DNA from: Dehalococcoidia bacterium
GTDB lineage: Bacteria > Chloroflexota > Dehalococcoidia > GIF9 > UBA5629
NCBI GenBank assembly: GCA_050011565.1
Contig: JBEKIW010000004.1
Span: forward strand, 113,522 to 177,521
Direction: 5' to 3'
DNA: 64,000 nucleotides
In this document: one piece after another, positions 24,078 through 42,747 of the stretch
Position numbering within the stretch: the stretch's first letter is position 1
Layout of the letters: each line of letters starts with the position of its first letter
Notes under the pieces: generated by a model
Told to the model about the DNA's origin: nothing
Seen by the model: only the letters and a program-made list of their open reading frames with translations
Database searches by the model: none
Translations under genes and position numbers: made by a program

Positions 24078-24881
24078 TTATTTCACGATTAAGGTGGTAA
24101 TTAACCAGTTAAGTATGTTGCTACCCCAGAACAAAGTTACTATGGCAGCCAGGGACAAAAAAGGGCCGAAAGGTATGGCATCTTTTCGTCCTTTCAGTTT
24201 GAGCAACAGTAAAATCGCAGCCGTCAAGCCGCCGACAATCACGGCAATGAACATAGCCAGAATAACCAATGGGAAGCCGGTGACAAAGCCTATAAGTGCC
24301 GCCAGCTTGATATCTCCCCACCCCATACCGCCTCGATAGAGGAGCCTGGGAAGAAGTAGCAGCAAAAAGCCAATGCCGCCGCCAATTGCAGCATCAACAA
24401 TCCATAGCCGAAAGCCCCCACCTACGATATCAACCGGTTCGAAGCCGAATATGGAACCCAGAGCGGCTACAACTAAGGCGATAACTATTCCCGGGTAAAC
24501 TAGCTTATTAGGCAATACGCTGTGCTCCAGGTCTATCAGTAGAAGGGAGATAAATAAGCAGCAATATAAGGCGACCAATGCCAGTTCCCATCCAAGACCA
24601 TAATGCCAGTAGAGAAAAGCAAACAAAATGGCGGTACCTAACTCCACCCAGAGCAACCGCTGAGGTATAGTGGCACCGCAATTGCGGCAACGACCTCTAA
24701 GCCATATATAACTGAATATGGGGATATTATCGCTGCCCGGAATTCGGTACTGGCATTCCGAACAATGCGATGGTGGCGAGATAATAGATTTACCTGCCGG
24801 CAGGCGGTCAGCAACTACATTGATAAAGCTGCCTAAAGCGGCGCCGACCATGAAGAATAAAACTACCCATAAAATAGTCAT
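24078..24881 (-). CDS. pilD: Prepilin peptidase / N-methyltransferase (A24A)
   Basis: GSFINVVADR, two CxxC pairs, LIDLE, GMGWGDIKL and IPFGPFL motifs. Confidence 0.95.
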   Translation of the reverse strand: MTILWVVLFFMVGAALGSFINVVADRLPAGKSIISPPSHCSECQYRIPGSDNIPIFSYIWLRGRCRNCGATIPQRLLWVELGTAILFAFLYWHYGLGWELALVALYCCLFISLLLIDLEHSVLPNKLVYPGIVIALVVAALGSIFGFEPVDIVGGGFRLWIVDAAIGGGIGFLLLLLPRLLYRGGMGWGDIKLAALIGFVTGFPLVILAMFIAVIVGGLTAAILLLLKLKGRKDAIPFGPFLSLAAIVTLFWGSNILNWLITTLIVK

Positions 24882-25762
24882 TTGCTGAGTTCAATCCTGT
24901 CCGCGATGCCCTCCATCATATCCAGCAGGAGAAGACAGTTTCGAAGCGGTTTACCGATTCCAGTAATAATCTTGATTATTTCCTGAACTTGCCAGGCGGC
25001 AACTACTGCCGGTGTAGCTGACGGATTACCGATTTTCACTTCAATGCCCTGCTCTGGAAATCTGTCTGGGGAACCATAAATGCAACAAAGCCCCGCATCT
25101 TCCGGGAAAATGGTGGTTAGTTGACCGCAGAAGCCGGCAATGGTTCCATGTACCAGTGGAATCCCCAGGCTCCGACAGGCGCTCTCAACCGCGAAACGGG
25201 ATGGTAGGTTGTCCAGCCCATCGGCCACAACCCTGGCACCCTTGAGTAATCTACGAGCATTCTCTTTGGTAAGTTTCTCTATAAATGTGGTAACCGTCAC
25301 TGCTGAATTTATTCGGGCTATTCTTTTTGCCGCTTCAAGAGCCTTATATTTACCCAGGTTCTTCTCCGTAGACATCACCTGCCGGTTTAAATTCTGTTCG
25401 GCAAAGCAGTCATTATCGATTATGGTTATGTGGCCAATTCCCTGCCTGGCCAGAAGTTCTATTATGGTACCGCCTAATCCCCCGGCTCCCACGACAGCTA
25501 CAGCTGATTGCAATAGTTTAATTTGCCCATCAAGGCCGACGGTGCCTATATTGCGGAGATACCGCCACGGTGTAACACCCTTTTTTAATGCCGCTATTTC
25601 TACGTCTCTAACCGCGATTCCTTGTGCCCGCGCAATAGAAGTCACTGCTTTCAGGCCGATAGCAGGGCATGTACGACCATCAGGCTCAATATATGTCACC
25701 GCACGTTTGTCAATTTGCTGGCTAATATGTTTGCCCACTATAAGTTGCTTTCCCCAAGACAT
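24878..25762 (-). CDS. HesA/MoeB/ThiF family protein
   Basis: RYLRN, VGAGGLG, D...NLNRQ and DGLDNLPSR motifs. Its stop overlaps the pilD start (ATGA). Confidence 0.9.
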   Translation of the reverse strand: MSWGKQLIVGKHISQQIDKRAVTYIEPDGRTCPAIGLKAVTSIARAQGIAVRDVEIAALKKGVTPWRYLRNIGTVGLDGQIKLLQSAVAVVGAGGLGGTIIELLARQGIGHITIIDNDCFAEQNLNRQVMSTEKNLGKYKALEAAKRIARINSAVTVTTFIEKLTKENARRLLKGARVVADGLDNLPSRFAVESACRSLGIPLVHGTIAGFCGQLTTIFPEDAGLCCIYGSPDRFPEQGIEVKIGNPSATPAVVAAWQVQEIIKIITGIGKPLRNCLLLLDMMEGIADRIELSK

Positions 25763-25888
25763 TCAAATATGGCAGTTAATATGATAGCAAAATAGGATGC
25801 ATTTAGCATTCAAGGAGATAAGAGGACAGAGGGTAGGTCGGAGCATCTGCTCTGACCGCTATCTATGTGGTATATAAGTTACAGGTAT

Positions 25889-28429
25889 TTATTTTGAGCC
25901 ACCTACTAATTGGTCAAGTGCCGGTATTAGCGTAGACCGGTCCGGGCTTTGGTCCAACTTGTCCCTCCATTCAGCAGCTATGCCGGGGAGTGCTGTTGTA
26001 AATTTTGGGCTCATTGTAGTGAGCTTTAAAATGGCTCGGAAAAGGTCGGCAACATCGTTGTTTGGCACCAACAGCATCGCAGTGTTGAATTCATCGAGGC
26101 CCATATCGGGATTGTCACTAAACAGGATGGTGATTCCAAGCAGGGCATGGGCAGTCCAGTCGTCCGGCTTTTCTTGAGTGTAGATTTCCAAAGAATCTCC
26201 CAGTGGGCTGACCATATCGTACGCCATGAGGTTATTGCACAGGTCAATAAAATAACTTAAATTGGATGGGTTATCTGTTATCGGTTGTGTAATCTTAAGC
26301 GCAGCCTCTTTATTTTTCCCTTCCCTGGCTAGAAGAAGACCGGAAATGAAAGATGTCTGTGCCCATTCGGGGTCTAAAGATGCTGCATAGTCGAGCTTTG
26401 TTCGGGCTTCATCCAGGTCACCTTTGGTGATTAGCGCCAGCGACCATTTATCCAATATGACGGCGTTGCCTGGGAACAACTGCGATGCCTTATCATATAA
26501 AGACATGGCTACAGGCCATTTATCAGCGGCTCCCGACCAAGCCCAATATGTGCAAATATCAGCCAGGGAATAGTGCTCATAGGCGACATAACGCCTTAGC
26601 TCGACTGCCTTGTATTGAGCTTCGGCAGCCATAGCTAAAACTTCTGTTTTGAAAGATTGTTCCTTGATATGCCTGGCAACGTAATAGCTATACTGTCCAA
26701 GCGAATGCCAGTAAGTAGCTTCTTCAGGGTACATCCTGGTTGCCTGGTCAAGAGCATAAATAGCCTGCCCGCTGCCGGCGATTTGTAGCTTCAGCCCCTT
26801 CTCCAGGTAGATATCGGCTAAGAACGGCCTGATAGCAATACCGAGACCGACAATTATCAAGGCTAAAACGCAGCCGAGGGATATCACCAATCTCGTCCCG
26901 GTAACACGAGACGTTGCGGTCGTTGCGGTCTGAGCCGCGTCTGTCAGCCGTACCTTTGACGGCGCTTTGTTCCGAATGAACCCACCGATGGCACAGGTCA
27001 TGGCCAGTATCAGCCAGAACACGAGCTCGGGTGATATTGTGGAGAGGTTAAAAAAGATATCGGCCATATACTGAACCATGCCAGCCGCCATAGCTATTAA
27101 AAGCAGTTTATCAATGTCCGCTGTCGCCCTGCGGAGATAGCGAAAACAAAGATAGAAGAAGGCGGCTAAAATGGAGAGAAAGCTAATGAGCCCCAGCAGC
27201 CCCATTGTCGTGGCCAGATATAGGTAGTCGTTATGAGGGCGATCTACCAAAAGCGACCGGTAAGTGTATTCGCTTTCAAGTTTTTCGGGGAAAAATAGCT
27301 GAAAGTTAATCGTGAATGTCTCGGGCCCGTAGCCGATAACCTTTCGCAGAACGTGCAGTCTATCGTTGGAAAATGGGACTTCTGGCGACTTTAGGACTAT
27401 GTCAATTGCGCTGTGCCAAAATTGTACTCTCAGCCCCAGAGTATAAAGTCCCACCTCTTCTGAGATTGGAGCGGGTTCTGACTCTTGTGGTGTAGCGGAC
27501 TCAGTGCTGGGTTGTGAAGATAGCAACGGTGCCAGAAGCAAACCGGCTACTATTACTAGAGCCAGCAGAGACACTGCGCCCAGGCTCAGTATTAGCCTCT
27601 TTCGCTTAACCACGCCCCATATTATTATGAAGACAATTAGCGATATGACATACAGCAAAATAGTTATGGAATATTGTGCCAGCCACAGGCACCAGAACTG
27701 AAGTGCCAACAGAACAGAGAGACTGACCAATATACCAACATTGTTACCTTCTTTTCTCTTGCTCCACGTATATACTATAAGAGCTAGATTGAATGGAATG
27801 ACCATGGCTAGGAAGCTGCTGAGGAAAAGTGGATTGCCTACGGTAGAAGATACCCTGACAGCAAATGGATTTGGAAATGGATTTGGTAACACCCTGGATA
27901 TTGCATCCGGTAAGTAATATTGCAGGATGCCTGTAAGTGAGACGATAGCCGACGAAACCAGCAATATATAAACAGCTCTTAGCAGCTGTGCCCTATTTCG
28001 GATTTGCTGCGCCACTATCAGGAAAAAAAGTATCCAGCAAATCAAAGTAAGCAGCCCTGCTTTTCTGAAATAGCTTCCCCAGAAGCTTATGGCCGGGGTT
28101 ATGGAAGCTGCTGTGGACAGGACCGCCAGCAGTCCGAATACCAGTATGGAAAGGTGCAGCGGTGAGGGAAAGATAGCTATCCAGTTCAGCCTCCTATGAC
28201 CGGCCGGGCTCAGTATCCAGTCAGCCAGCCACAGCGCCAGCATAGCCGATACCAGGAACTGAAACAAGGCAGCTTTATTTAGAATAAAAACCTGATGGCT
28301 TAGAGGGTTGAAGAAGAGGGGGATTAAGAAGATAGTAGCCAGCCAGGTTATCTCAAGAGCCCGCTTGAAAAAATTAGGCCGGATGTTTGGCTGTTCCATG
28401 ATGGCTGTCATTATAGACTTTCCTAGCAA
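25889..28429 (-). CDS. O-antigen-ligase (Wzy_C) family protein with TPR domain, candidate pilin O-oligosaccharyltransferase
   Basis: Many TM helices. STVGNP, GYGPETF and DRPHNDYL Wzy_C motifs, and a helical TPR-like C-terminus. The true start may be one of the downstream ATGs. Confidence 0.8.
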   Translation of the reverse strand: MLGKSIMTAIMEQPNIRPNFFKRALEITWLATIFLIPLFFNPLSHQVFILNKAALFQFLVSAMLALWLADWILSPAGHRRLNWIAIFPSPLHLSILVFGLLAVLSTAASITPAISFWGSYFRKAGLLTLICWILFFLIVAQQIRNRAQLLRAVYILLVSSAIVSLTGILQYYLPDAISRVLPNPFPNPFAVRVSSTVGNPLFLSSFLAMVIPFNLALIVYTWSKRKEGNNVGILVSLSVLLALQFWCLWLAQYSITILLYVISLIVFIIIWGVVKRKRLILSLGAVSLLALVIVAGLLLAPLLSSQPSTESATPQESEPAPISEEVGLYTLGLRVQFWHSAIDIVLKSPEVPFSNDRLHVLRKVIGYGPETFTINFQLFFPEKLESEYTYRSLLVDRPHNDYLYLATTMGLLGLISFLSILAAFFYLCFRYLRRATADIDKLLLIAMAAGMVQYMADIFFNLSTISPELVFWLILAMTCAIGGFIRNKAPSKVRLTDAAQTATTATSRVTGTRLVISLGCVLALIIVGLGIAIRPFLADIYLEKGLKLQIAGSGQAIYALDQATRMYPEEATYWHSLGQYSYYVARHIKEQSFKTEVLAMAAEAQYKAVELRRYVAYEHYSLADICTYWAWSGAADKWPVAMSLYDKASQLFPGNAVILDKWSLALITKGDLDEARTKLDYAASLDPEWAQTSFISGLLLAREGKNKEAALKITQPITDNPSNLSYFIDLCNNLMAYDMVSPLGDSLEIYTQEKPDDWTAHALLGITILFSDNPDMGLDEFNTAMLLVPNNDVADLFRAILKLTTMSPKFTTALPGIAAEWRDKLDQSPDRSTLIPALDQLVGGSK

Positions 28430-28475: not shown

Positions 28476-28516
28476 CAGTACTATTGTCCTATTATGTGAA
28501 TAGGACTAATCTCCTA
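28476..28516. promoter_or_regulatory. Two copies of the pilus-locus palindrome upstream of the pilin
   Basis: CAGTAC-TATT-GTCCTA (28476-28491) and TAGGAC-TAAT-CTCCTA (28501-28516). Candidate pilin promoter TTGACT-N18-TAAGAT at 28550-28579. Confidence 0.55.
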
Positions 28517-28628
28517 TCTCTACATGTACCAAATCACTATGCAAATACATTGACTTGTAGCCTATGGGTAATATAAGATACGAAGTATATTATTGTACGC
28601 ATGAACAATGAGAAAGGAGGTGAATGTA

Positions 28629-29003
28629 ATGCGTAAATTATTGAAGGCGATAGGAAAAATCCATAGTGGGAGAATGGGTGAGGGTGGCTTTACCCTCATC
28701 GAGTTACTGGTTGTCATCGGCATCCTGGCAGCTCTAGCTGGTGTAGTCACACTGGCTGTCGGTCGGTTCATCGGCGCTGGCACGTGCCAGGCTTGTTTAA
28801 CCGACCGTCACAACGTGCAGACGGCTGTAGTAGCTTTTATGGCACAAAACTTGGGAGCTACACCAGCCAATCCTGCACAAACTAGCGCTGATCTGGCGCC
28901 ATACATGGTAGATAAGCCGAAGTATAACTGGACGTGGAATACAACCAGTGGTAACCTCATTGAGACCTGCGGCGGTGTGACATCAGGCGTATGTACCCCG
29001 TAA
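28629..29003 (+). CDS. Type IV pilin (probable major pilin)
   Basis: Class III signal G|FTLIELLVVIGILAALA. Strong SD AGGAGGTG before ATG 28629. Monocistronic with its own terminator. Confidence 0.9.
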   Translation: MRKLLKAIGKIHSGRMGEGGFTLIELLVVIGILAALAGVVTLAVGRFIGAGTCQACLTDRHNVQTAVVAFMAQNLGATPANPAQTSADLAPYMVDKPKYNWTWNTTSGNLIETCGGVTSGVCTP

Positions 29004-29057: not shown

Positions 29058-29089
29058 GGGGCAGACCTGGAGGTCTGCCCCTTTGTTTT
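29058..29089 (+). terminator. Rho-independent terminator after the pilin
   Basis: GGGGCAGACCT-GG-AGGTCTGCCCC followed by TTTGTTTT. Confidence 0.85.
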
Positions 29090-29395: not shown

Positions 29396-30793
29396 TTATT
29401 GCAGAGTCAAGGTGAACTGCCACTGATTGTATTGCATCTCGCTCATGTTTGATATCATGACTGAGGAGAACTGGCCGGAGTTCGTTAAGGCGCGGACATA
29501 GTCCACAACTGTGGTGTCATCGGGTGCTATGCCGGTTACGGTCAGCGTCCCTGCGGAATAATCAATGGAATTCAAATCGATAATGCCGGGCAACAGGCTG
29601 GTTACCTTGCTCAGGACGTTATTTGCCGTAGCTCGTTGTGCTTTAGCGCTATCCAACGCCTGAGTAAAGACAGCGCCGGCATTATGAGCTTTATCAATTT
29701 GTGCCTGCAATTGCTTGATTGCTGTCTGAGTGGTTTGCCTATTTTCAATCTGAGTCTGTATGCTGTTGACTTGTGTCATCAAACCTATGGTTTGCCTATA
29801 TGACTGTAAGGTGGTTATACCGAACAGCAGGAGCATTATGATTGCCAGCACGATAAATGCCCAAGAAGCAAGTTGAATAACGGGAAATGACTTGGGCAGA
29901 TAGACTTCAGGGGTGACATTCAGGTTGACCCGTGCCGGGCTGATATCAACCCGCGTCTGTCTTAGAGCCAGGCCTATATTAGTCGCATATTCACTTGTAT
30001 TTAGACTATCGGCATAGGATAACAATTGAGGCAATGGCTTAACTCGATACTCCAATGTTCCTGCCAGCATCTCACCCAGCTCACCGCTGACGAAAGCTGC
30101 CATGCGGTTGGTGATTTCACCACCTTTGTGGCTTGAGTTATAGAAGGCAATCGTCCTGTCCAGCTCTTCTTTTACCTCGGCTATTTTCTCATCTGGCGAA
30201 GCTGCGTCATCCGGGAATGGCAGGCTGCGCAGCAATTCGGGTATGCCATCAATCACGGCAACGATGTCAAATCCAACTGGCTGGGCATTTATTATTAAAG
30301 AATCCCTTTCATCGGCGACTCTGGCCAAAGCCAGCGGCCTGACATCAATGACCTCGGGTTGTAACCCCGCCTGACGCAATGTTTCCAGCACGGAATCAAC
30401 ATTACTACGCGGCATACCGACAAGACAGATGGCGGTCTCTATATCTGACAGGCTTATTGCCTGCCACGATGTATAAAGCTCGTTCAGAGGTACCGGCATC
30501 GCCCTCTCCATTTCCTGGCGAACCGCCTGGTCTAGCAGGTTCTTCGGTAATTTTGGGACTTTAACCACACGGTATATAGAATGAATGCCGCTGATGCCGA
30601 CCATAACCCTCTTTTCGCTGATGCCGTGGGCGGCCATCAGCTCGCTGATACGCTGGCCGACAGTAACCGGGTTAGTGATGATGCCGTCATGTATCAAGCC
30701 TGCCTCCAGCGGCAAGCTGGCTGCCATTTCCACCTGCTTTCCCTTGACCACCATCAATTTTATTGAGTTATCTTCAATATCTAAAGTGACCAT
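29396..30793 (-). CDS. pilM: Type IV pilus assembly protein, PilM-PilN fusion
   Basis: Actin-like PilM motifs (TLDIED, LETLRQAGL.P..IDVRPLALAR, E..RTI.FY), then NLN.P, a TM helix, a coiled coil and a PilN-like domain (LTVTG.A...V..Y...L..S..F). Confidence 0.85.
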   Translation of the reverse strand: MVTLDIEDNSIKLMVVKGKQVEMAASLPLEAGLIHDGIITNPVTVGQRISELMAAHGISEKRVMVGISGIHSIYRVVKVPKLPKNLLDQAVRQEMERAMPVPLNELYTSWQAISLSDIETAICLVGMPRSNVDSVLETLRQAGLQPEVIDVRPLALARVADERDSLIINAQPVGFDIVAVIDGIPELLRSLPFPDDAASPDEKIAEVKEELDRTIAFYNSSHKGGEITNRMAAFVSGELGEMLAGTLEYRVKPLPQLLSYADSLNTSEYATNIGLALRQTRVDISPARVNLNVTPEVYLPKSFPVIQLASWAFIVLAIIMLLLFGITTLQSYRQTIGLMTQVNSIQTQIENRQTTQTAIKQLQAQIDKAHNAGAVFTQALDSAKAQRATANNVLSKVTSLLPGIIDLNSIDYSAGTLTVTGIAPDDTTVVDYVRALTNSGQFSSVMISNMSEMQYNQWQFTLTLQ

Positions 30794-30802: not shown

Positions 30803-31381
30803 TTAACTGCCTCCATAACATAGTACATCCATTACCACGGTGGCTGTGTCGTACTCTCCCTCTACTCCGGTAATCGTAAATGTCACTCGGTTTATCTGGG
30901 ATGTCGGCAGCTTCGTATCAAGTCCCAGGAGGAAGTTCTGGAACAGAGATACTTGCCCTTTGAGATTAAGCGTAATGGTCAATATCGGACCTATACTTCC
31001 AGGCGGTGTCGAAGTTGCTACCTTGGTTGCTGTGATGTATATATCATTGACCTCAGCCAGTTTTCGCAGGCTATCGAGTATTTGTGGCGACCCCTGGGGG
31101 CTGGGGAAAGTGGCTTTAGCCGATTCTGTATCAGCTGTAGCCTGTGCCAGATCAGCTTCGAATTTAGCTTTTGGCGTTTGCACCGGGGTTACTATTTTCT
31201 GCAGGTTGGACAGGGTGGCTTCTAATTGACTTTGCCTTTCCGGCTGTTGTTGATTGACTACAAATAGGGGTACAAATATGACCAAAAAAATGCCGATAAC
31301 CAGCACTAGCTGGCTGATACGGCCCAGCTTGGGCAGCCTATCCAGAAAGCCTTTCTTCTTTTCCTGTCCGGGTTCCATCAT
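30803..31381 (-). CDS. PilO-like pilus assembly protein
   Basis: TM helix, coiled coil and a ferredoxin-like end (LNLKG...FQNFL..L). Located directly upstream of pilM-pilN. Confidence 0.7.
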   Translation of the reverse strand: MMEPGQEKKKGFLDRLPKLGRISQLVLVIGIFLVIFVPLFVVNQQQPERQSQLEATLSNLQKIVTPVQTPKAKFEADLAQATADTESAKATFPSPQGSPQILDSLRKLAEVNDIYITATKVATSTPPGSIGPILTITLNLKGQVSLFQNFLLGLDTKLPTSQINRVTFTITGVEGEYDTATVVMDVLCYGGS

Positions 31382-33731: not shown

Positions 33732-34255
33732 TCCGTTGGTCGCGGGCTTATCTGATAAGTATCCTGCACATATCTTGTGCCATTCAACGAGGCTCTTATG
33801 TTCACAGTCAACTTCATTAAAGTAGTATCCCAGGTACAGTTAGTGTAGGCGGGGACGATATATTGAGCGATTAAAATTGCAGGTCCACCATTAAGACTAC
33901 GCGTCAGCGTATTACCGTTGAGAATATATTGAATATCATTGTTATATTGAGTACCACTGATATTGTTCCAATCGCTCCATTTAAGAGACAGGAAAACACC
34001 GGGTGTATTGCTGCTCACTACCTGCGCCATGACAGCATCGCGGGTAATCCAGTGACCGGCGTTCTGCACCTGGCGCAGATTTACATTCCATTCGTCATTC
34101 TGCGAGGTGGTTCTCGTTATGGTGATTATGGATGCCGACATAACGCCGATAATAGCGCCGGCTATAGCCAGCGCCACCAACATCTCGATGAGAGTAAACC
34201 CCTTCTCAGTTATCTTCGGCATTGTCTTTCTCTTTTCGCCGCTGTATGCCTTCAT
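33719..34255 (-). CDS. Minor type IV pilin (PilW/GspJ-like)
   Basis: G|FTLIEMLVALAI and QNAGHWITRD motifs. Confidence 0.85.
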   Translation of the reverse strand: MKAYSGEKRKTMPKITEKGFTLIEMLVALAIAGAIIGVMSASIITITRTTSQNDEWNVNLRQVQNAGHWITRDAVMAQVVSSNTPGVFLSLKWSDWNNISGTQYNNDIQYILNGNTLTRSLNGGPAILIAQYIVPAYTNCTWDTTLMKLTVNIRASLNGTRYVQDTYQISPRPTDWGG

Positions 34256-34319: not shown

Positions 34320-34751
34320 TCATTGTCCGATCTTGTACTTATAGCCCTCCAGAGTGAAGTCTGGCTTTGGCTTGGTGCCATGGGTAACAGTAACTGTTAT
34401 TTTCTGGAGTCCTTCATCGGCACCAGTATGGAGGCCCTGAGGGTCCAGGGGTACGAACGCAATCCCTATGTGATATCCGGCAGGTTCTGTGATTTTGGTA
34501 TATTGTCCGGTAACGCTGTAATTTTGTTGCTTTATAGACTCCATTTGCGATTTAGCTAAGCCTTCGGCGGATACTTGATCCTGGCCGACCATTACCGCCT
34601 TAGATGAGGTTGACACAGCGACAAGGAAGACACCGGCAACTGCGGCTAAAAGGGCGAGCGCTATCAGGACTTCCACCAGATTAAAACCTTGCTCGCCGTT
34701 GAGGGCAGAGCGGAAGCTCGGAAATGACCACCGGTGCCGGCTTTTAGTCAT
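34320..34751 (-). CDS. Minor type IV pilin (PilV/GspI-like)
   Basis: G|FNLVEVLIALALL, A..LA.SQME.IK and LQKITVTV motifs. Confidence 0.85.
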   Translation of the reverse strand: MTKSRHRWSFPSFRSALNGEQGFNLVEVLIALALLAAVAGVFLVAVSTSSKAVMVGQDQVSAEGLAKSQMESIKQQNYSVTGQYTKITEPAGYHIGIAFVPLDPQGLHTGADEGLQKITVTVTHGTKPKPDFTLEGYKYKIGQ

Positions 34752-35984
34752 CTAGCCACCTGCTCCTCCTACCAGGCTAAGGGAGCTGTAGATGGGCATA
34801 AAAACAGCCAGGGCGAGGAAGCCAACTCCCACCCCCATGGCTATGGTCATCACCGGCTCAATCATGCCGAGCATGGTCTGTGTCCTTCTGTCGGCTTCGA
34901 TTTCAAAGTTTTCAGCTACCATAATTAGTGACTCGTCCAGACTGCCTGTTTCCTCACCTACCTTGGTCATTTCCACCATCATAGGCAAAAAGACAGGGTT
35001 GTTGCTCATTGGTTTAGACATTCCCTGGCCTCTGAGCATGCCCTGTTCCACCTGGCTCAAAGCTCTGGATACAACTCGATTGCCAGTGGCTTGAATGGTC
35101 AGAGCCATAACTTCAGGAATTGGCAGACCGGCGCGAAATAACACCGATAAGCTGCGGCAAGCCCGTGCCAGCTCAGTTAACAGATTCAGCCGACCGAGCA
35201 ACGGCAACCGCAACATAATCCTATCGCGGTTATAACGTCCGGTTGGCGTCCGGCCGTAAAAGAAACCGACTGCAATCAAAGCGATGATGCCCACGAATAA
35301 AAATACGCCAAAATGTTGCAGGAAACCCATACTGGCGAGGAGAATCCTGGTGGGTAGAGGTAGCTCGCCGCCCAACGTGCTGAACATCTTAATCAGTGGC
35401 GGCAGCAGGACGGTGAGCATGATTATGGCAACAACGATTGCCAAACAGAAGACAATAACGGGATACATCATGGCCTGCTTGATTTTAGACATAGATGCGG
35501 TCAGACGCTCGGTGTAAGTAGCTAAGCTCTTAAGTACGGTTTCCAGCGAGCCAGTCTGCTCACCGACGCTAATCATCTTGCAGTAAAGCTTAGAAAAGAC
35601 CTGAGGATGCTGGGCCAGAGCCAGCGATAGCGATTTGCCTCCTCGGAGGTCGTTGATTACTGCAAGAAGCACTCTCTTTAGCCCTGAGTCGGTTGACTGG
35701 TTTTGGAGCAACTCCAGGGCCTGGATGATACCGACGCCTGATTCCAAAAGCAGCGCCAGTTGCCGGGAGAAGGTAACCATCTCCGCCGACTTAACCTTTT
35801 TCCGGAAAAATCCACCTGAGGATGAAAACAAGCGTGTGTCTGGCTTAAGGCTGACCACCCGGTAGCCGATGTTAGACAACATATCCGCGGCTGCGCGCTC
35901 ATCAGCCGCTGAAATCCTTCCCTTTACCATTTGCCGGTCTGCGGCATATCCTTGATAGGTATAGTCCATATCACTAACCTCCAA
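34752..35984 (-). CDS. pilC: Type IV pilus platform protein (GspF/PilC family)
   Basis: FSRQLALLLESG, GEQTGSL, AMMYP, ELPLPTRIL, GEETGSLD and IEP motifs. Confidence 0.95.
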   Translation of the reverse strand: MEVSDMDYTYQGYAADRQMVKGRISAADERAAADMLSNIGYRVVSLKPDTRLFSSSGGFFRKKVKSAEMVTFSRQLALLLESGVGIIQALELLQNQSTDSGLKRVLLAVINDLRGGKSLSLALAQHPQVFSKLYCKMISVGEQTGSLETVLKSLATYTERLTASMSKIKQAMMYPVIVFCLAIVVAIIMLTVLLPPLIKMFSTLGGELPLPTRILLASMGFLQHFGVFLFVGIIALIAVGFFYGRTPTGRYNRDRIMLRLPLLGRLNLLTELARACRSLSVLFRAGLPIPEVMALTIQATGNRVVSRALSQVEQGMLRGQGMSKPMSNNPVFLPMMVEMTKVGEETGSLDESLIMVAENFEIEADRRTQTMLGMIEPVMTIAMGVGVGFLALAVFMPIYSSLSLVGGAGG

Positions 35985-36046: not shown

Positions 36047-38455
36047 TTAATCACCTACGGAATAGGCGTTGCGTAGCACTTCATACGGTGTGGTGATGCC
36101 GGCCCCGGCCTTAAGCATGCCGTCTTTGGACAGAGTTATCATTCCTTCCTCAATCGCCTGGGCACGAATGTCAGCAGCAGTAGCACCGGTAACAATCAAT
36201 CGCCTGATTTCATCGCTCATGGTCAGAATTTCAAAAAGACCTGTCCTACCCAGATAACCGGTGTACGTACATAATTTGCAGCCGGCACCGTAATCGAACT
36301 CGAGTCGTTCCTCACCTGTTTCGCGGTAATAAGCTTTCTGCTCTACCAGAGGCGCTTCGACCTTGCGAGCGCAGCTGGTACAGACCCGCCGAACCATTCG
36401 TTGGGCCGCGATACAGATAACGGCTGAGCATATGAGGAAAGGCTCAACACCGAGGTCGATAAGTCGAAATAGTACGCCTACCGTATCATTGGCATGGACT
36501 GAAGATAGCACCAGATGGCCGGTTAGAGCAGACTGGGTGGCTATGTCAGCGGTCTCACTATCTCGAATCTCACCGACCAGTATAACGTCGGGATCAAGCC
36601 GTACTATAGCCCGCAATCCACTGGCAAAGGTTACACCGGCCTTGGTATTTATTTGTATCTGGTTTATACCCTGGAAACGATACTCCACGGGGTCTTCGAT
36701 GGTAATGATGTTGCGGCCTACCTTATCGAGTGAGTTGACCGCAGCATAAAGCGTTGTTGTCTTGCCGGCGCCGGTAGGGCCACTGAGCAATAGCATGCCA
36801 TAAGGTGCCATAAGCATACGCTCGAACTGTTCCTGGCTCTCCGGCAGGAAACCTAGTTGAGACAGAGATAGGGCGGCCATTGATTTATCCAGAAGGCGAA
36901 GTACTGCCGTTTCACCGTGGACAGTGCTGATACTGGCTACCCGAATGTCAATATCTTTGCCCGTGGCGACAAGTGAGAACTGACCATCTTGAGGGCGGCG
37001 TGGGTCAGCGATATTCATACCGGCCAGAATTTTAATGCGGGAAATAAGCGGTCCGTGAGCACCAATGGGCAGTGAGGTGACCTCGTGAAGTATACCATCG
37101 ATACGATATCGGACACGTAACCTATCTTCTTCAGGTTCGATATGAATATCGGAAGCACGGGCTTTTACCGCCTCTTCAACTAATAAATTAAGCGCCTTGG
37201 CTATCGGAGAACCATCGGCTATCTCGGCAGCAGCTTTATCTACAGGTATTATCCCTGAGGCTACTGCTGCCAGGTTGAACTGTTTGTCTATTTCGCCAAA
37301 CTTGCCTATTTCGCCAAACTGTTTGCCTACTTCGCCAGGGGTTTTGTAGTTGAAATCAATGGCTGCTTGCACATCCGCGAGTGTTGCCGGCACCGGCTCG
37401 ATTCTCATTTTGGTTCTAGCAGCCAGGGCTTGTATAGCCAAAATATCGCCAGGGTTGACCATGGCTACACGTAAAGTATTATCGTTAACCGCCAATGGTA
37501 CTGCATTATACTTTCTAGCCAGTTTTTCGGGGATGATACTAAGGACTTCCGGCGACGGGGCTTGAATCGGTACGTTAATTTTAGCGGCGCCGGAAACCAG
37601 CCCGGTAACCACCGGCGGTTCAGCGCGTATCGATTCAGCTACTTTGACTGCGCCTGTTTCCTTGCTTGCTTGTGCAGCTGCCTTTTTAGCTGTATGGGGT
37701 TCAGCGGCTGGTTTCTCTTGTGTTGCCTTACCAATTTCAAAGACTTTTATCTGCTGTTTCTCGGCGAATTGCCTGGCTTCATCGCTGAGTTTCGGTGATG
37801 CCACAATCAGACTGCGGACAATGCCCGTGTCTTTAGCTCTAGAATCAATTAAAGATAACGGCTCTATACCCACCTCATCGTCCGCCGAGAGAAAATCTAT
37901 GCTGACTGGATGGGTAATAAGGCCATCGTCCACATAGGCCAAGACATCAAAGATATGCTCGGCTTCTGATATGCCATTTACCTTAACTTTTTCCTCGGTT
38001 TTGTAGCCACGTTCGGTCAATGATTTTAGTAGCTGGGCTCTAGTGCCGAATTCAACAGGCTTGTGGTGTTTGGCTGCGGGTGGCGCTGCACTCAGGAATG
38101 CATTTAGACCCTTTTCATCAAAAACTTTTATGCTTTCTTGCTGGGCGAAGTTGGCGGCCATGGCACCAAGTTTGGGTATAGCGATAAAGACTCTGTCAGC
38201 TATGCCGGCATCATTTGCTTTCTCATCGAAATTGAATAGTGCACCCAGGCCTACTTCTTCACGCTGGCTGACAGATGACCCGATGGCTACATCGTAACTG
38301 AAAAGGCCATCGTCTTTATGTGCCATCATAGCAAACTTATGCTCAGTTCCCGAACTGCCCTTGACTTTAGCATCCATGGTTACTTCGTAGCCATGCTGCT
38401 TCAGGCGTTGCGCGAACTGGCTCTCGCGTGTTTGTTGGGAATCTGCCTTCGCCAT
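36047..38455 (-). CDS. pilB: Pilus assembly ATPase (PilB/GspE) with two N-terminal restriction-endonuclease-like domains
   Basis: ASDIHIEP, RYRIDG, PQDG, GPTGAGKTT, TIEDPVE, DPDVILVGEIRD, TGHLVLSSVH and two CxxC motifs. Residues ~10-243 are two repeats of an L...GY....K..G.S..H.FD..A domain. Confidence 0.93.
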   Translation of the reverse strand: MAKADSQQTRESQFAQRLKQHGYEVTMDAKVKGSSGTEHKFAMMAHKDDGLFSYDVAIGSSVSQREEVGLGALFNFDEKANDAGIADRVFIAIPKLGAMAANFAQQESIKVFDEKGLNAFLSAAPPAAKHHKPVEFGTRAQLLKSLTERGYKTEEKVKVNGISEAEHIFDVLAYVDDGLITHPVSIDFLSADDEVGIEPLSLIDSRAKDTGIVRSLIVASPKLSDEARQFAEKQQIKVFEIGKATQEKPAAEPHTAKKAAAQASKETGAVKVAESIRAEPPVVTGLVSGAAKINVPIQAPSPEVLSIIPEKLARKYNAVPLAVNDNTLRVAMVNPGDILAIQALAARTKMRIEPVPATLADVQAAIDFNYKTPGEVGKQFGEIGKFGEIDKQFNLAAVASGIIPVDKAAAEIADGSPIAKALNLLVEEAVKARASDIHIEPEEDRLRVRYRIDGILHEVTSLPIGAHGPLISRIKILAGMNIADPRRPQDGQFSLVATGKDIDIRVASISTVHGETAVLRLLDKSMAALSLSQLGFLPESQEQFERMLMAPYGMLLLSGPTGAGKTTTLYAAVNSLDKVGRNIITIEDPVEYRFQGINQIQINTKAGVTFASGLRAIVRLDPDVILVGEIRDSETADIATQSALTGHLVLSSVHANDTVGVLFRLIDLGVEPFLICSAVICIAAQRMVRRVCTSCARKVEAPLVEQKAYYRETGEERLEFDYGAGCKLCTYTGYLGRTGLFEILTMSDEIRRLIVTGATAADIRAQAIEEGMITLSKDGMLKAGAGITTPYEVLRNAYSVGD

Positions 38456-38540: not shown

Positions 38541-38564
38541 TATCTCTTTGTCGTCGTTTTAAAT

Positions 38565-38990
38565 TCAGGGGGCTATAGTTCCCATACCATCCCTTCGGGG
38601 CAACGGCTCATGTCCGGGCAGCGCCCGCTCCAGTCTTGGGGCATAATTGTTGTTAGCCATGCGTATCATGCCCAGCGGCACGGTGCTAGGGGCACTGACA
38701 ACCATAAAGCAAGCCCCGTCAGCTATGGGTTTTATCACCTGGTAGGTGAAGGCGGTACTGAAAATGACATCGTCGAGCTTGCCAAATTCAGTAGTCGATT
38801 GTTTGAAGGCATCGATTGCTCCATTAATCGTCTGAATAAACCCGCCCAGCGAGTCGGGTGGCAGTTTATTATCGGGTGAGTCCCAGGATGAAAGCAACAT
38901 CCCATCATTATCGGCAACTGCTATCACCCAGGTTCCTGCCAGTCCCCCCGCCATCTCAGACAACAACTCCTTCATATTGGTATTAGGCAT
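38565..38990 (-). CDS. Roadblock/LC7-like protein (paralogue 4)
   Basis: Roadblock-type pattern: helix, VIAVADNDGMLL, helix, three strands, VPLGMIR helix. SD GGAGGTG. Confidence 0.7.
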   Translation of the reverse strand: MPNTNMKELLSEMAGGLAGTWVIAVADNDGMLLSSWDSPDNKLPPDSLGGFIQTINGAIDAFKQSTTEFGKLDDVIFSTAFTYQVIKPIADGACFMVVSAPSTVPLGMIRMANNNYAPRLERALPGHEPLPRRDGMGTIAP

Positions 38991-39076
38991 TAAAGCTCAC
39001 CTCCTTTCTCCACTTTTCCGGTATCGAAAATAACTCCATTCTCCAAGCTTTTCAGATACAAAATCAACTTGGTTCA

Positions 39077-39141
39077 AGTGTAAGCAAGTCAAGTATGTTT
39101 GTCAAGCAAAACGATAGGTTCTATGTAGCACTTTAGTCCTA
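39077..39141 (-). promoter_or_regulatory. Promoter with upstream palindrome (roadblock paralogue 4)
   Basis: TTGACA(39105-39100)-N17-TACACT(39082-39077). TAGCAC-TTTA-GTCCTA at 39126-39141 lies 20 nt from the -35 box. Confidence 0.7.
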
Positions 39142-39196
39142 TGTGGAACTTAGTGGAATACCGTAGCGATACAGGTTAACAACTGCAGGTTTGACT

Positions 39197-39592
39197 TCAG
39201 GTGGCTATTGGCTCGCGGCCGGGAATGGCCTGCTCCAGCCTGGGGACATAATTTTTGAACGCGGTACGTATCGAACCCAGAGATATCGTCCTCGACGCGT
39301 CCGCTACTATAAAGCAAGAACCATTGCAAATCGGCTTAAGCATCATATAACTTAAGGATGTACCCAGTACGATATCATCGAGCTTGCTGAATCCATTGGA
39401 CGATTGTTTGAACGTGCTGATGGTGGACTTAATCTGTTGAATGAACTCACCCAGCGCTTCAGGTGAGAGCTTATTTTCGGATGACTCCCAGTAAGCAAGA
39501 ACCATGCAATCACTGTCTGTTACTGCTAACAGCCGGATTCCCTCGAGTCCACTTGCCATTTCAGCCAACAGGTCCTTCATGCTGATTGCCAT
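39197..39592 (-). CDS. Roadblock/LC7-like protein (paralogue 3)
   Basis: Clearly paralogous: LAVTDSDCMVL...LDDI...ISLGSIR...LEQAIPG. Confidence 0.7.
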   Translation of the reverse strand: MAISMKDLLAEMASGLEGIRLLAVTDSDCMVLAYWESSENKLSPEALGEFIQQIKSTISTFKQSSNGFSKLDDIVLGTSLSYMMLKPICNGSCFIVADASRTISLGSIRTAFKNYVPRLEQAIPGREPIAT

Positions 39593-39787
39593 TGTAGATT
39601 AGTTCCTCTTTAATCCGATTATTGTTATCTTACAGCGTTGAGTGAATTAGCTCTCAAATATTTGCCTGATATCTGCTTCCGCCGTCTATCTCTGGTATCA
39701 TCGCAAGTAAGGATTATTTTTGAAGAATAACACACACTGTAATATATAAATTACGTAGGTAGTGTGTCTTTGCTGGTCTGTTTAACT

Positions 39788-40213
39788 TCAGGGGATGATG
39801 GTCCCCATGCCGTCCTTGCGCGGCGATGGCTGGCGGCCGGGCAGAGATTGCTCCAGTCTCGGGGCATAATTGTTGATAGTCGTACGTATCATGCCCAGAG
39901 GCACACTCCTGGGAGCGCTAACTACTATAAAGCAGGTGGCATCAGCTATAGGCTTAATTATCTGGTGGACCTGAGTGGTACTGAATATGATATCCTTGAA
40001 GCTGCTGAAGCCTACTGGCGACTGTTTAAATATGACCACCGCGTTATTAAATATCTGCATAAATCCGCCCAATGCTTCGGGAGAAACTTTATTATCGGGC
40101 CCCTGCCAGGTTGCCAGGACCATGCTATCACTATCTATTACCGTAACCTGCCAGATTCCTGGCACTCCCCGTGCCATTTCGGACACTATATCCTTCATAT
40201 TACCGTCTGGCAC
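39788..40213 (-). CDS. Roadblock/LC7-like protein (paralogue 2)
   Basis: Paralogous: VIDSDSMVL...VPLGMIR...LEQSLPG..P.PRKDGMGT. GTG start after GGAGG. Confidence 0.7.
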   Translation of the reverse strand: MPDGNMKDIVSEMARGVPGIWQVTVIDSDSMVLATWQGPDNKVSPEALGGFMQIFNNAVVIFKQSPVGFSSFKDIIFSTTQVHQIIKPIADATCFIVVSAPRSVPLGMIRTTINNYAPRLEQSLPGRQPSPRKDGMGTIIP

Positions 40214-40270
40214 TAAGTGTTACCTCCTTTCTTAAATTAAAGATGTTTAATCTAAATAAGTTGTCTGGCT

Positions 40271-40696
40271 TCAGGAAACGACTGTTCCAATGCTATCCCT
40301 TCGCGGCAGTGCCTCATGCCCGGGCAGAGCCTGCTCCAGTTTGGGGGTATAATTATTAGCTGCCATGCGTATCATTCCCAGCGGCACGGTGTTTGGGGCA
40401 TTGACTACCATAAAGCACGCCCCATTGGCCATGGGCTTTATCACGACGGAGGAAAAACCCATACTGAATATGACATCATCGAGCTGACCGAATCCGGTAG
40501 TCGATTGTTTGAAAGCATCGATTGCTTCATTAACCGTTTGAATAAACCCGCCCAGCATTTCAGGTGGGAGTTTATTCCCGGGCGAGCTCCAGGATGAAAG
40601 CAGCATCCCATCACTATCGGCGACTATAATCACCCAGGCTCCTTCCAGTCCCCCGGCCATTTCTGACAATATGTCCTTCATTTTTATATCAGGCAT
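40271..40696 (-). CDS. Roadblock/LC7-like protein (paralogue 1)
   Basis: Paralogous, and most similar to 38565..38990. Confidence 0.7.
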   Translation of the reverse strand: MPDIKMKDILSEMAGGLEGAWVIIVADSDGMLLSSWSSPGNKLPPEMLGGFIQTVNEAIDAFKQSTTGFGQLDDVIFSMGFSSVVIKPMANGACFMVVNAPNTVPLGMIRMAANNYTPKLEQALPGHEALPRRDSIGTVVS

Positions 40697-40813
40697 TAAA
40701 GACCACCCCCTTTCGCTTTATTCCTGACCATGGAAGATAATCTAAGTTCCATATCTAACCAATAAATCACCCGCGCTTCCTGTATCGAGCGCCGGTATAT
40801 TTAATTTCATCAA

Positions 40814-40879
40814 AGTGTAGGCATGTTCTCGTACGTTTGTCAAGTTCGTTAACGTATTGGATATAGTACCTTAGTCCTA
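40814..40879 (-). promoter_or_regulatory. Promoter with upstream palindrome (roadblock paralogue 1)
   Basis: TTGACA(40843-40838)-N18-TACACT(40819-40814). TAGTAC-CTTA-GTCCTA at 40864-40879 again lies 20 nt from the -35 box. Confidence 0.7.
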
Positions 40880-40958
40880 TAGACTACTTTGGGAGGGATA
40901 GATGAATGTACCCAATTCATGCTGTATGAGGGTGAGGGTAGCTACGGACGCCAGTATT

Positions 40959-42320
40959 TTAAGCTAATTTACCGGGGTCGCTAACTTCGATGGTTTTGAT
41001 TCTCTGATATTGGGCAAATTGCCTGGCTTCCTGACTGAGCTGGGGGCAGACCAGTAACAGCTTGTCATGAATACCGACGTCGTAGGCCCTGGTGTCAAAT
41101 GAAGATACAGTATTGAAACTGATTTCGTCATGCGCTATCAAGATATTTATAGCTAATGTGTGGTTGATGATGCCATCATTTTTGATAGCCAGTATATCGA
41201 AGACATGCTCTACTCCGGACCTACCCATGATTTTGGCTTTTTCCTCAAAACTATAGCCGGAATTTTTCAAGTGTTCCAAGAGTTTAGCTTTGGTTTCAAA
41301 GACGAAAGGCTGGTTGCCCGATTGCTTTTGTGTCGCTAGCGGGGGCGATTTCAAAAGGAGTTCTATGTCCTTTGCCTCAATGACTTTAATCCGCTGTTGC
41401 CGGGCAAATTGACCGGCTTCGGGGCTGAGCTTGGGAACGACCACCAAAACCTTATCGTGTATGCCCAGGTCATATACCTTGTTATCGAAGGCAAAAACTT
41501 CGGCTAAACTTATTTCTTGTCCCTGGCTGTCGACAAGTATGCCAACGCCGATGGTGTAATTTACCAGGCCATCGCTACGCTGTGCCAGGATATCCAGTAC
41601 ATGTTTAGCTCCGGACTTAGTAGTACCATTGACTTTGGCACTTTCAATAACATCATAGCCCCGGCTTCTGAGAAAATCTGCGAATCTCGGTTTCTCAGTG
41701 AGTTCGAATTGAAGCTGGCGTTTTTTACCTGCATTTAGGCGATAGGAATATAGAACTATCTCTTTGGCTTCGCCTTCCGGGAATAAGTATGAGCACTGGA
41801 GGCACTGCATATTGAAGGCAGCGTCTTTTGAAATCGCACCGCATTCACGGCATTTGTAGCTGATGCCCAGACTCTGATAGTCGGTGCCGAGAAACCTGAG
41901 CTCCTGTCGGCATTTGGGGCAGACGTATTTACCGTTATTTGCGTAATCTTCTTCAAGGCTGTTATTGCGGCAGGCAAGATGTTCCAGTATTCTACCTTTG
42001 GCTATGTTGCCTGAGCCGCACTTGGGGCAGCCAAGTCCTGGTTTTAAATTTGGAGACTGGCATTTGGGACAAAATCGAATATTTTCATGTAAATTTCTCT
42101 CCAGAATGTCCTCATTAGCCAGAAATTCCAGGGTGTTTACGGCCTCCAAAGTTGTTGACTCAAGGATTTTTTCTGCTTGAGGGTAACCGAAACCATCCTT
42201 GGTCGACGCGTTGATGCTGGGTTTGACTTCGCTTATTCTCCCGGACATAATCTCCTGGATAAGCTTCATAGCCTTATTATTTTGCTTTACCATTCTAACT
42301 GCATCAATGACTTCGACCAT
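40959..42320 (-). CDS. TackOD1-like multi-zinc-ribbon protein with two C-terminal restriction-endonuclease-like domains
   Basis: G..YP...LE.LA...IL.R...CPKC...CPKC...LEHLAC...CPKC..EL...GTDY...CREC...CLQC...YSYRLN matches the TackOD1 pattern. The C-terminal half has two G.SG..H..DILA domains. Confidence 0.75.
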   Translation of the reverse strand: MVEVIDAVRMVKQNNKAMKLIQEIMSGRISEVKPSINASTKDGFGYPQAEKILESTTLEAVNTLEFLANEDILERNLHENIRFCPKCQSPNLKPGLGCPKCGSGNIAKGRILEHLACRNNSLEEDYANNGKYVCPKCRQELRFLGTDYQSLGISYKCRECGAISKDAAFNMQCLQCSYLFPEGEAKEIVLYSYRLNAGKKRQLQFELTEKPRFADFLRSRGYDVIESAKVNGTTKSGAKHVLDILAQRSDGLVNYTIGVGILVDSQGQEISLAEVFAFDNKVYDLGIHDKVLVVVPKLSPEAGQFARQQRIKVIEAKDIELLLKSPPLATQKQSGNQPFVFETKAKLLEHLKNSGYSFEEKAKIMGRSGVEHVFDILAIKNDGIINHTLAINILIAHDEISFNTVSSFDTRAYDVGIHDKLLLVCPQLSQEARQFAQYQRIKTIEVSDPGKLA

Positions 42321-42425
42321 TATTTTCCCTCGATACTTAAGTTCCAGCTAAGAAAGTTTAAATGAAACGTAGCCAAGTTGCAATACATTTATCTGGCTTC
42401 ATACAACATTTGGTCATGTTTGAGG

Positions 42426-42509
42426 TAGTACATTAGTCCCGAAAGGGCATTATGCAGCCGTATTTTGTACCAGGAGCAGTTTGACAACCGTAAAGCATTA
42501 ATATAAAAT
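42426..42509. promoter_or_regulatory. Palindrome and divergent promoter between the TackOD1-like gene and the HTH gene
   Basis: TAGTAC-ATTA-GTCCCG at 42426-42441. TTGACA-N17-TAAAAT at 42481-42509 on the plus strand. Candidate TTGCAA-N17-TAAACT at 42383-42355 on the minus strand. Confidence 0.6.
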
Positions 42510-42543
42510 AGTACCTAACTAGCAGTTGTTTAAAACAACAACA

Positions 42544-42747
42544 ATGATAGATTTGCAAGGTTTCACAAATGTTCGCGATGCTGCCAGGCAGATTGGCATA
42601 CACGAGGAATCGCTACGGCGGCTTCTGAGGCAGGGGAGTCCGTCCGGGGAGAAAATAGGTGGCCAGTGGTTCATAAGCAAGGAGCAACTGGCTCTATTTG
42701 CTAACACATATAATGCCAAGACCGGTAAAAGAATGAAGCTTATATGA
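42544..42747 (+). CDS. Small excisionase-like (HTH_17/MerR-type winged) DNA-binding protein
   Basis: NVRDAARQIGIHEESLRRLLRQG...GEKIGGQWFI. ATG 42544 chosen over TTG 42526. Confidence 0.85.
   Translation: MIDLQGFTNVRDAARQIGIHEESLRRLLRQGSPSGEKIGGQWFISKEQLALFANTYNAKTGKRMKLI

Follow-up and report, generated by a model that had tools for sequence, protein, structure and literature searches.

The region 24078-42747 of a 64-kb stretch of DNA from a Dehalococcoidia bacterium (the whole stretch is called the window here) is a type IV pilus locus that is encoded mainly on the minus strand of a 2.0 Mb genome that is 99% complete. Two proteins of this locus share one module. A tandem pair of restriction-endonuclease-fold (REase-fold) domains, named RE2 in this analysis, forms both the N-terminus of the extension ATPase PilB and the C-terminal half of a zinc-ribbon TackOD1 protein encoded upstream. 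Residues 208-446 of the TackOD1 protein align with residues 9-241 of PilB at 41% identity over 239 amino acids (aa) with an E-value of 4e-56; that the two proteins share a tandem module of ~235 aa had been noticed in an earlier, sequence-only reading of the window. The explanation that we favor, tentatively, is that RE2 may be without catalytic activity and may serve in regulation, connecting the pilus motor with TackOD1 signaling proteins and with the roadblock accessories.

On this explanation, a cytoplasmic control layer that is specific to the lineage and centered on RE2 would be added to a type IV pilus operon of the monoderm type. The module travels with PilB, either fused to it through a flexible linker or as the C-terminal half of a TackOD1 protein encoded in the same locus. 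TackOD1, with or without a REC domain, would be the sender, and RE2 would be the interface on the PilB side, in contact with PilB itself or with a partner of both. The signal would be passed from TackOD1-RE2 to the pilus motor post-translationally. The four roadblock-fold proteins would be accessory subunits specific to the fused RE2-PilB, probably bound as dimers to the PilB N-terminal region, without a small GTPase. The physical contact, the direction of signaling, and the effect on ATPase activity are what we infer from the observations given below. The genes of the proposed control layer are listed in the order of transcription.

40959..42320, minus strand: TackOD1-RE2 protein, 453 aa, zinc-ribbon TackOD1 domain at residues 12-195 (PF18551, 126.7 bits) and tandem, putatively inactive REase module at residues ~205-453 (Mrr_cat, 28.1 bits)
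40271..40696, minus strand: roadblock-fold paralogue 1 (rbl1), 141 aa (AlphaFold2 model and Foldseek)
39788..40213, minus strand: roadblock-fold paralogue 2, 141 aa, GTG start, 53% identity to paralogue 1
39197..39592, minus strand: roadblock-fold paralogue 3, 131 aa, 50% identity to paralogue 1
38565..38990, minus strand: roadblock-fold paralogue 4 (rbl4), 141 aa, 74% identity to paralogue 1
36047..38455, minus strand: RE2-PilB, 802 aa, with RE2 at residues 1-245, a ~50-aa linker, an MshEN-type N-domain, and a T2SSE ATPase (Pfam: T2SSE 416 bits, MshEN, Mrr_cat 23.7 bits)

The RE2 module of the TackOD1 protein and of PilB

The TackOD1-like zinc protein of the sequence-only reading is a TackOD1 protein by the Pfam gathering cut-off, since the PF18551 match over residues 12-195 scores 126.7 bits and 32 are required. 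Five CxxC motifs and one HxxC motif are found at C84/C87, C98/C101, H114/C117, C134/C137, C157/C160, and C173/C176, and these residues are invariant in 13 sequences. Eleven conserved cysteines in five CxxC motifs plus one HxxC motif are the TackOD1 hallmark in the passages on this domain of Galperin et al. (2018, PMC5847659). The protein is the single TackOD1 of the window genome and is not in the REC-TackOD1 form.

The structure of the RE2 module of PilB was predicted with a pLDDT of 87.9 and a pTM of 0.81, and the model consists of two alpha-beta-beta-beta-alpha-beta units. The best PDB matches obtained with Foldseek are the Mrr-like AF1548 and NucS/EndoMS. The Pfam family Mrr_cat (PF04471, cut-off 21 bits) matches the TackOD1 protein with 28.1 bits and PilB with 23.7 bits. 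A sequence search of the PDB with the RE2 profile returned nothing significant (best E 0.28).

The catalytic positions were examined by placing the sequences on the predicted strands. In active enzymes (D/E)xK is carried by the third core strand, and this strand is without the lysine in 4/4 REase-fold domains of the window. The PD motif of the first PilB domain is also without its aspartate, and arginine replaces lysine in the helix motif of the second domain of both proteins. The two RE2 modules are acidic (net charges of -7 and -2), unlike a typical DNA-binding domain. A match to the Pfam family NA-iREase1 (PF22722, "inactive REase") appears at 30.3 bits for one relative.

The ATPase stays below the cut-offs of the equivalog models, with 511.6 bits for TIGR02538 (cut-off 675.65) and 524.3 bits for GspE (cut-off 630.25). 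It was named PilB because of the T2SSE match of 416 bits, the adjacent genes for PilC, PilM-N, the pilins, and PilD, and the presence of a separate PilT in the genome. The absence of pilT from the 64-kb window, as claimed in the sequence-only reading, is correct, but the gene is found on another contig with 442 bits for TIGR01420 (cut-off 319). This sole pilT (contig C5, L002:1261-2349) adjoins a gene for a membrane protein of endonuclease/exonuclease/phosphatase type, as judged by eye. The pilT gene of most relatives sits after pilM-N within the pilus locus.

A quick tree was calculated for 117 RE2 modules, without the duplicate loci L043 and L094 and without partial modules of <180 profile positions; four of the five REC forms were removed in this way. 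All TackOD1-type modules fall into a single clade (84 rows, SH-aLRT 99), and the RE2 module of the window PilB is placed on a long branch outside this clade. The module of PilB as a recent copy of the neighboring TackOD1-RE2 module was ruled out by these separate clades, and the RE2-PilB fusion is therefore old and not the product of a local duplication. The acquisition of the PilB core along with the roadblock genes was likewise ruled out, since the identity of the core is 73% with the same-family short PilBs and 59-61% with the roadblock-linked PilBs. By these identities the PilB core follows the organism.

Distribution of RE2, TackOD1-RE2, and the roadblock family

A total of 301 Dehalococcoidia genomes were sampled, up to 20 kb was fetched around each match, and the open reading frames (ORFs) were annotated by phmmer. 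RE2 is found in 42/301 genomes. RE2-PilB is encoded in 30 of these 42 (including one split gene and one interrupted gene) and a TackOD1-RE2 protein of ~450 aa in 21, with both forms present in 10. The TackOD1-RE2 gene lies ~25 nt upstream of a gene for a short PilB (~520 aa) without RE2 in 8 of the 42, and a longer REC-X-TackOD1-RE2 response regulator is encoded in 5. All ten genomes of family f48, nine of which are closed single contigs, have the fused form only, and TackOD1 was not found in the one f48-family genome tested. RE2 is thus fused to PilB in some genomes and forms the tail of the product of an adjacent gene in others, which argues that the RE2 signaling protein and PilB work together.

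The second set consisted of 80 TackOD1-RE2 loci from named metagenome-assembled genomes and overlaps the 42 genomes in part. The linkage to pilus genes in other genomes, on which the sequence-only reading had staked its proposal, is observed on both sides. TackOD1-RE2 is encoded within a pilus locus in 72/80 loci, and all copies of the roadblock family in the sampled genomes (11/11) lie directly upstream of RE2-PilB. The TackOD1-RE2 gene is directly before pilB in 19 of the 80 loci, between pilD and the pilin gene and directly upstream of the latter in 48, and in an arrangement of the window type in 5. The remaining 8 loci have no recognizable pilus gene, and seven of these end at a contig end.

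The RE2 profile was compared with 1.84 billion representative proteins, and 163 proteins were obtained at E<=1e-10. A sample of 20 of the longer RE2 proteins contains 17 with TackOD1 (14 of them also with REC), one PilB, and two with REC only. The RE2 family of this sample is therefore found behind TackOD1 or before PilB, barring the two REC-only proteins.

The operon of the REC-X-TackOD1-RE2 regulator encodes a GAF histidine kinase, an OmpR-type regulator, a GT2 synthase-like glycosyltransferase, an epimerase, a deacetylase-like protein, and a UDP-glucose dehydrogenase. It is conserved at L084:5288-16776 and also at L046, L051, L057, and L059, and its gene content suggests control of an exopolysaccharide machine. 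The presence of an OmpR-type DNA-binding regulator and a GT2 synthase in these operons suggests that the output of REC-TackOD1-RE2 may be non-transcriptional. TackOD1-RE2 is the output part of one- and two-component signaling proteins, and it is for this reason that a signal to the motor is proposed. A pilT-like gene adjoins the operon at L084.

Altered forms of the proteins were also observed. In G279, RE2 and the core of PilB are encoded by two distinct ORFs that overlap (L074:7605-10429), TackOD1 and the REase module are split by an in-frame TGA in G014 (L071:17333-18693), and RE2-PilB is interrupted by TAA in G150 (L082:8308-10617). These broken forms could be real decay or assembly errors. 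PilBs of ~1100 aa with a much longer N-terminus are encoded in G100 (L049:1570-4866) and G295 (L080:9810-13118). The PilB of G100 contains two RE2 modules, that is, four REase-fold domains, and one RE2 module was detected in the PilB of G295.

The four paralogues encoded before pilB, which share 50-74% identity with paralogue 1 as the reference, had been described as roadblock-like. The fold and the annotation of relatives agree with this description, but the Pfam score does not reach its cut-off: the best PF03259 match is 15.5 bits and 23 are required. One paralogue also has a weak MAPKK1_Int match in Pfam. The AlphaFold2 model of paralogue 1 (pLDDT 79.8) has the alpha-beta-alpha roadblock fold. 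The top Foldseek matches are MglB (1j3w, TM 0.69), Ragulator, and MglC with a probability of 1.00 (structures 1j3w, 3t12, 6izw, and 7ct3). Many of the 207 relatives are named by JGI as roadblock/MglB-type proteins or COG2018-type regulators of Ras-like GTPases, and some carry precomputed PF03259 matches. The family is present in 5/301 Dehalococcoidia genomes with 11 copies, and no GTPase gene was found beside the roadblock genes of the four genomes other than that of the window. Four copies are present in the window-type loci L096, L097, and L098 and also in L103, where one copy is split; the window is the sixth locus of this type. A complex of two copies of paralogue 1 with the RE2 module of PilB (residues 1-245) was predicted without controls, and the result (score 0.01, mark 0.32) is neutral on binding.

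Several observations weigh against the proposed coupling of RE2 to the motor. PilB is encoded in 113/301 genomes of the class, and RE2 is found in just 39 of those 113. One Dehalococcoidia locus with full flanks (L131) is without a pilus gene. A TackOD1 protein with a single RE domain (TackOD1-RE1, ~316 aa, labeled "restriction endonuclease" by NCBI) occurs in candidate division WOR-3, and pilus genes were found within 8 kb of TackOD1-RE1 in 0/4 loci (two WOR-3 bins and two unclassified bacterial bins, L175-L178). RE2 retains the polar residues SGxEHxFD together with DxK/DxR in the following helix; a binding pocket is therefore likely for this module, and a variant active site is possible. A conserved promoter palindrome, described in the next section, fits a transcriptional role of some protein of the locus, possibly TackOD1-RE2. 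For the roadblock genes, the four other genomes that carry them (one or two copies each) are without TackOD1, 36 of 37 further RE2-PilB loci are without a roadblock gene (the one that has it is the G100 contig already counted), and all ten f48-family genomes lack them. The closest relative fetched (L095, with a TackOD1-RE2 of 87% identity) retains only the 3' remnant of one copy.

The roadblock genes are missing from most RE2-PilB loci and have decayed in the closest relative, so they are no core part of the mechanism; by its distribution the family appears to be specific to the fused motor yet dispensable. The single integrated system of the sequence-only reading stands in that both linkages are conserved, but the two are separable, as is seen from the four roadblock genomes without TackOD1 and the many RE2-PilB loci without roadblock genes. 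A further observation concerns the TackOD1-RE1 loci, two of which have genes for a 189-aa membrane protein and a 389-aa protein after the TackOD1-RE1 gene.

The promoter palindrome and competing explanations

The palindrome that had been reported to recur in the promoters is present. The inverted repeat GGACTAANGTNCTA occurs at four sites in the window with <=1 mismatch, compared with 0.2 expected, and none of 100 shuffled sequences (0/100) reaches four. The core is GGACTAAnnTnCTA, with the consensus TAGGACT-N2-AGTCCTA. All four sites are on the coding strand upstream of the genes for the pilin, rbl4, rbl1, and TackOD1-RE2. They are listed below with a small gene that is divergent from the TackOD1-RE2 gene.

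28503..28516, plus strand: palindrome copy ATAGGA-N6-TCCTAT, a perfect inverted repeat, upstream of the pilin gene
39126..39139, minus strand: palindrome copy upstream of rbl4; 19 nt on, TTGACA-17-TACACT
40864..40877, minus strand: palindrome copy upstream of rbl1; 19 nt on, TTGACA-18-TACACT
42426..42439, minus strand: palindrome copy ~105 nt upstream of the TackOD1-RE2 start
42526..42747, plus strand: small basic HTH_17 protein, 73 aa, pI 10.4 (Pfam HTH_17 E 2.9e-5, under the cut-off)

The consensus with <=2 mismatches was found at 28 sites in 131 loci (1.73 Mb), compared with 1-8 sites in ten shuffles. Most of these sites precede genes for TackOD1-RE2, roadblock proteins, the pilin, or the surface protein in the family of the window, and loci that lack the HTH_17 gene are among them. 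The motif is also present before the TackOD1-RE2 gene in relatives. The looser pattern ATAGGA-N6-TCCTAT (>=10/12 matches) is not enriched, with 69 sites compared with 46-76 in shuffles. The palindrome was not found at the TackOD1 and pilin promoters of the 34 pilD-TackOD1-pilin loci examined, and a word count did not reveal a shared palindrome there. The HTH_17 gene occupies the last 220 bases of the region and has a conserved counterpart at this position in 7 related loci, with a promoter-like site at 42481-42509. Its product is one candidate binder of the palindrome.

The main rival explanation is that TackOD1-RE2 is a transcription factor. The winged-helix-like N-terminus and the basic zinc ribbons would bind the palindrome, and RE2, also carried by PilB, would be a sensor of a ligand or partner, so that transcription and motor activity would answer to one signal with no contact needed. 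The four sites of the window and the 28 sites of the wider set fit this explanation, as do the sites at loci without the small HTH gene. The position of TackOD1-RE2 directly upstream of the pilin gene in 48/80 loci and the net charge of +6 of its zinc-ribbon part also speak for it. The WOR-3 homologues are not tied to pili, as would be expected for a regulator with changeable targets, and in the usual one-component layout the DNA-binding domain is first and the sensor second. Set against this, the palindrome was found only in family-level relatives of the window and not at the 34 pilD-TackOD1-pilin loci despite their well-conserved TackOD1. The basic HTH_17 protein is another candidate binder in the window, and the REC-TackOD1-RE2 operons already encode an OmpR-type DNA-binding regulator. 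The TackOD1 part did not match any DNA-binding family in Pfam and gave no usable match in the ESM Atlas. We consider a transcription factor somewhat less likely than signaling to the motor; the data do not discriminate between these two roles, which could also be combined.

One such combination is a homotypic docking checkpoint. Six RE2 pairs on the PilB hexamer would capture and release operator-binding TackOD1-RE2, the state of the motor would feed back on transcription, and roadblock dimers would tune the exchange without a GTPase. This more elaborate scheme is doubtful. If it is true, TackOD1, so far an orphan output domain of archaea and bacteria, would gain its first assigned target, the type IV filament ATPase.

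The roadblock array could also be an MglB/MglC-like polarity or GTPase-regulating module with its partner encoded elsewhere, in which case the adjacency to pilB would reflect co-expression only. MglB, MglC, and Ragulator are indeed the best structural matches, and COG2018-type names are given by JGI to many relatives. Every copy of the family in the 301 genomes, however, adjoins RE2-PilB and none lies beside a GTPase gene. The sequence-only reading had found no small GTPase and no chemosensory genes in the window, and this extends to the genome: no MglA-like GTPase was found, the only matches to the Ras and Arf models of Pfam in the 99% complete genome are frames of 366-625 aa, as large as housekeeping GTPases, and no CheW was found. 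A polarity module of this kind is improbable. Least probable are working nucleic-acid-binding or nuclease domains, for example in a competence-type pilus motor that handles DNA: the REase fold, the NucS/EndoMS and Mrr-like matches, and the PD-motif aspartate and nearby DxK kept in many homologues would suit them, but the four window domains have no lysine on the (D/E)xK strand, the PD motif of PilB domain 1 is without its aspartate, both second domains have arginine for lysine in the helix motif, and the module is acidic with a relative that matches NA-iREase1.

The wider locus and known pilus regulators

The genes were annotated with Pfam and NCBIfam, and all type IV pilus genes that had been listed in the sequence-only reading are present. 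Two of its three minor pilins match N_methyl, and the third is a pilin-like protein of 686 aa without a family match. Its gene list holds for the elements named, and genes for a ThiF-like protein and a Wzy_C/TPR protein lie additionally between pilD and the pilin gene. The one-strand layout holds for the minus-strand genes but not for the pilin gene, which is on the plus strand. The order along transcription is TackOD1 protein, four paralogues, PilB, PilC, two minor pilins, the 686-aa pilin-like protein, PilO/GspM-like protein, PilM-PilN, pilin (plus strand), Wzy_C/TPR protein, ThiF-like protein, and PilD. The remaining genes are as follows.

34752..35984, minus strand: PilC platform protein (T2SSF, two stretches)
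34320..34751, minus strand: minor pilin (N_methyl)
33719..34255, minus strand: minor pilin (N_methyl)
31671..33731, minus strand: large pilin-like protein, 686 aa, without Pfam or NCBIfam match; position conserved in related loci
30803..31381, minus strand: PilO/GspM-like protein (weak NCBIfam GspM match, E 8.7e-5); position conserved
29396..30793, minus strand: fused PilM-PilN (PilM_2 and PilN)
28608..29003, plus strand: major pilin (N_methyl); terminator-like hairpin at 29058-29081
25889..28429, minus strand: Wzy_C/TPR membrane protein, 846 aa, with C-terminal TPR repeats (Pfam Wzy_C 38.8 bits)
24878..25762, minus strand: ThiF-family (ThiF/MoeB-like) E1-like enzyme between pilD and the Wzy_C gene (Pfam ThiF 186.9 bits)
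24078..24881, minus strand: prepilin peptidase PilD (A24_N_bact, Peptidase_A24)
42802..46533, plus strand: surface protein, 1243 aa, with C-terminal membrane anchor and lysine-rich tail, divergent from the pilus-control genes

Homologues of the Wzy_C (O-antigen-ligase-type) protein adjoin the pilin gene in L050 and L055. The pilin O-glycosyltransferases PglL and TfpO belong to the Wzy_C family, and by analogy the Wzy_C/TPR protein may glycosylate the pilin. In L063 and L119, too, a ThiF homologue borders pilD or the pilin gene. The surface protein is 37% identical over ~1100 aa to the product of a gene in G054 at the same position beside the roadblock and RE2-PilB genes. Homologues are encoded divergently upstream of TackOD1-RE2 in 20/80 loci, and divergently beside the pilus-control genes in 10 of the 37 additional RE2-PilB loci and in three genomes with roadblock genes (G054, G212, and G279).

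Two further features of the window lie beyond the surface-protein gene. The gene pair at 47066-48905 (plus strand) encodes a 377-aa protein with a C-terminal resolvase-type HTH_7 and a 228-aa protein of the phage-integrase family with a zinc-ribbon insert, and may be a mobile-element remnant beside the locus. A hybrid histidine kinase with three PAS domains, GAF, HisKA, HATPase, and REC is encoded at 50180-53050 (minus strand), ~8 kb from the TackOD1 gene.

Type IV pili with accessory regulators are known, and the locus is of this kind. MglA-MglB, together with MglC and SgmX, controls type IV pili in Myxococcus and Thermus. A roadblock-fold protein linked to the pilus motor is common to that system and the present one, but no MglA-like GTPase was found here, and four tandem paralogues are encoded directly before pilB.

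Links of TackOD1 and roadblock proteins to pili have already been noted in archaea. The TackOD1 passages of Galperin et al. (2018, PMC5847659) name the domain, note it in thaumarchaeal pilus loci and in "some bacteria", also behind REC, and call its function obscure. Zinc-ribbon proteins of arCOG06883 (TackOD1) and roadblock proteins of arCOG02603 are among the proteins linked to archaeal pilus loci in the corresponding passages of Makarova, Koonin, and Albers (2016, PMC4858521). The archaeal loci are alike in that Cys-rich TackOD1 and roadblock/LC7 proteins are encoded in pilus loci and that TackOD1 also occurs behind REC. They differ in three respects. The present host is bacterial, and its ATPase is of the PilB/GspE type. 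TackOD1 is followed here by one or two REase-fold domains in a module that is also fused to PilB, an arrangement not found in the consulted passages of PMC4858521 and PMC5847659. The roadblock family is tied strictly to the fused PilB.

Cofactors of PilB include MshEN with c-di-GMP and PilZ-FimX (review PMC11656802), and PATAN-REC regulators reportedly bind PilB1 in Synechocystis (PMC8389850; bioRxiv 10.1101/2021.06.11.447907). These are alike in that accessory N-terminal domains or separate signaling proteins, including response regulators, act on the extension ATPase; the present case differs in its putatively inactive REase pair with a TackOD1 zinc-ribbon partner. The terms endonuclease, roadblock, MglB, and Chloroflex are all absent from that 2024 review. 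The proposal that RE2 acts instead of c-di-GMP was not borne out, as five GGDEF genes are present in the genome. A membrane GAF-GGDEF-HD-GYP protein (Pfam) is encoded just past the surface-protein gene of G054 (family f2, L064:14977-18030), and a c-di-GMP enzyme is therefore encoded beside that pilus locus. ORFs similar to this gene hold the same position in L068 and L074.

Inactive REase modules with regulatory or adaptor roles (NA-iREase1, PF22722; Mrr_cat, PF04471) share with RE2 the REase fold without the canonical catalytic strand. RE2 differs from them in being tandem and in being joined to TackOD1 or PilB in 18/20 sampled proteins (REC only in the other two). Public annotation pairs PF18551 with PF04471 on TackOD1-RE proteins, so the architecture is already visible in databases, though a discussion of it was not found. 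Neither the RE domain nor its RE2-PilB fusion nor the PilB-specific roadblock family was found described in the consulted parts of the literature on TackOD1, arCOG06883, Dehalococcoides pili, and PilB; the supplementary domain tables of PMC4858521 and PMC5847659 may bear on this. The sequence-only reading, which knew of no description of this arrangement, had not mentioned the earlier reports of TackOD1 and roadblock proteins in archaeal pilus loci.

The value of these results is limited because they come from the comparative genomics of uncultured organisms and because the roadblock genes are both rare and dispensable. Pilus assembly is controlled at PilB, which is known to be regulated by c-di-GMP domains, PilZ-FimX, MglA-dependent factors, and a few response regulators. 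The inactive nuclease pair on PilB in many Dehalococcoidia would add a new N-terminal regulatory module to these. The roadblock-fold proteins would be an example of this fold on an ATPase motor for which no GTPase partner is evident. For TackOD1, the pattern of fused or neighboring genes offers a concrete, testable target.

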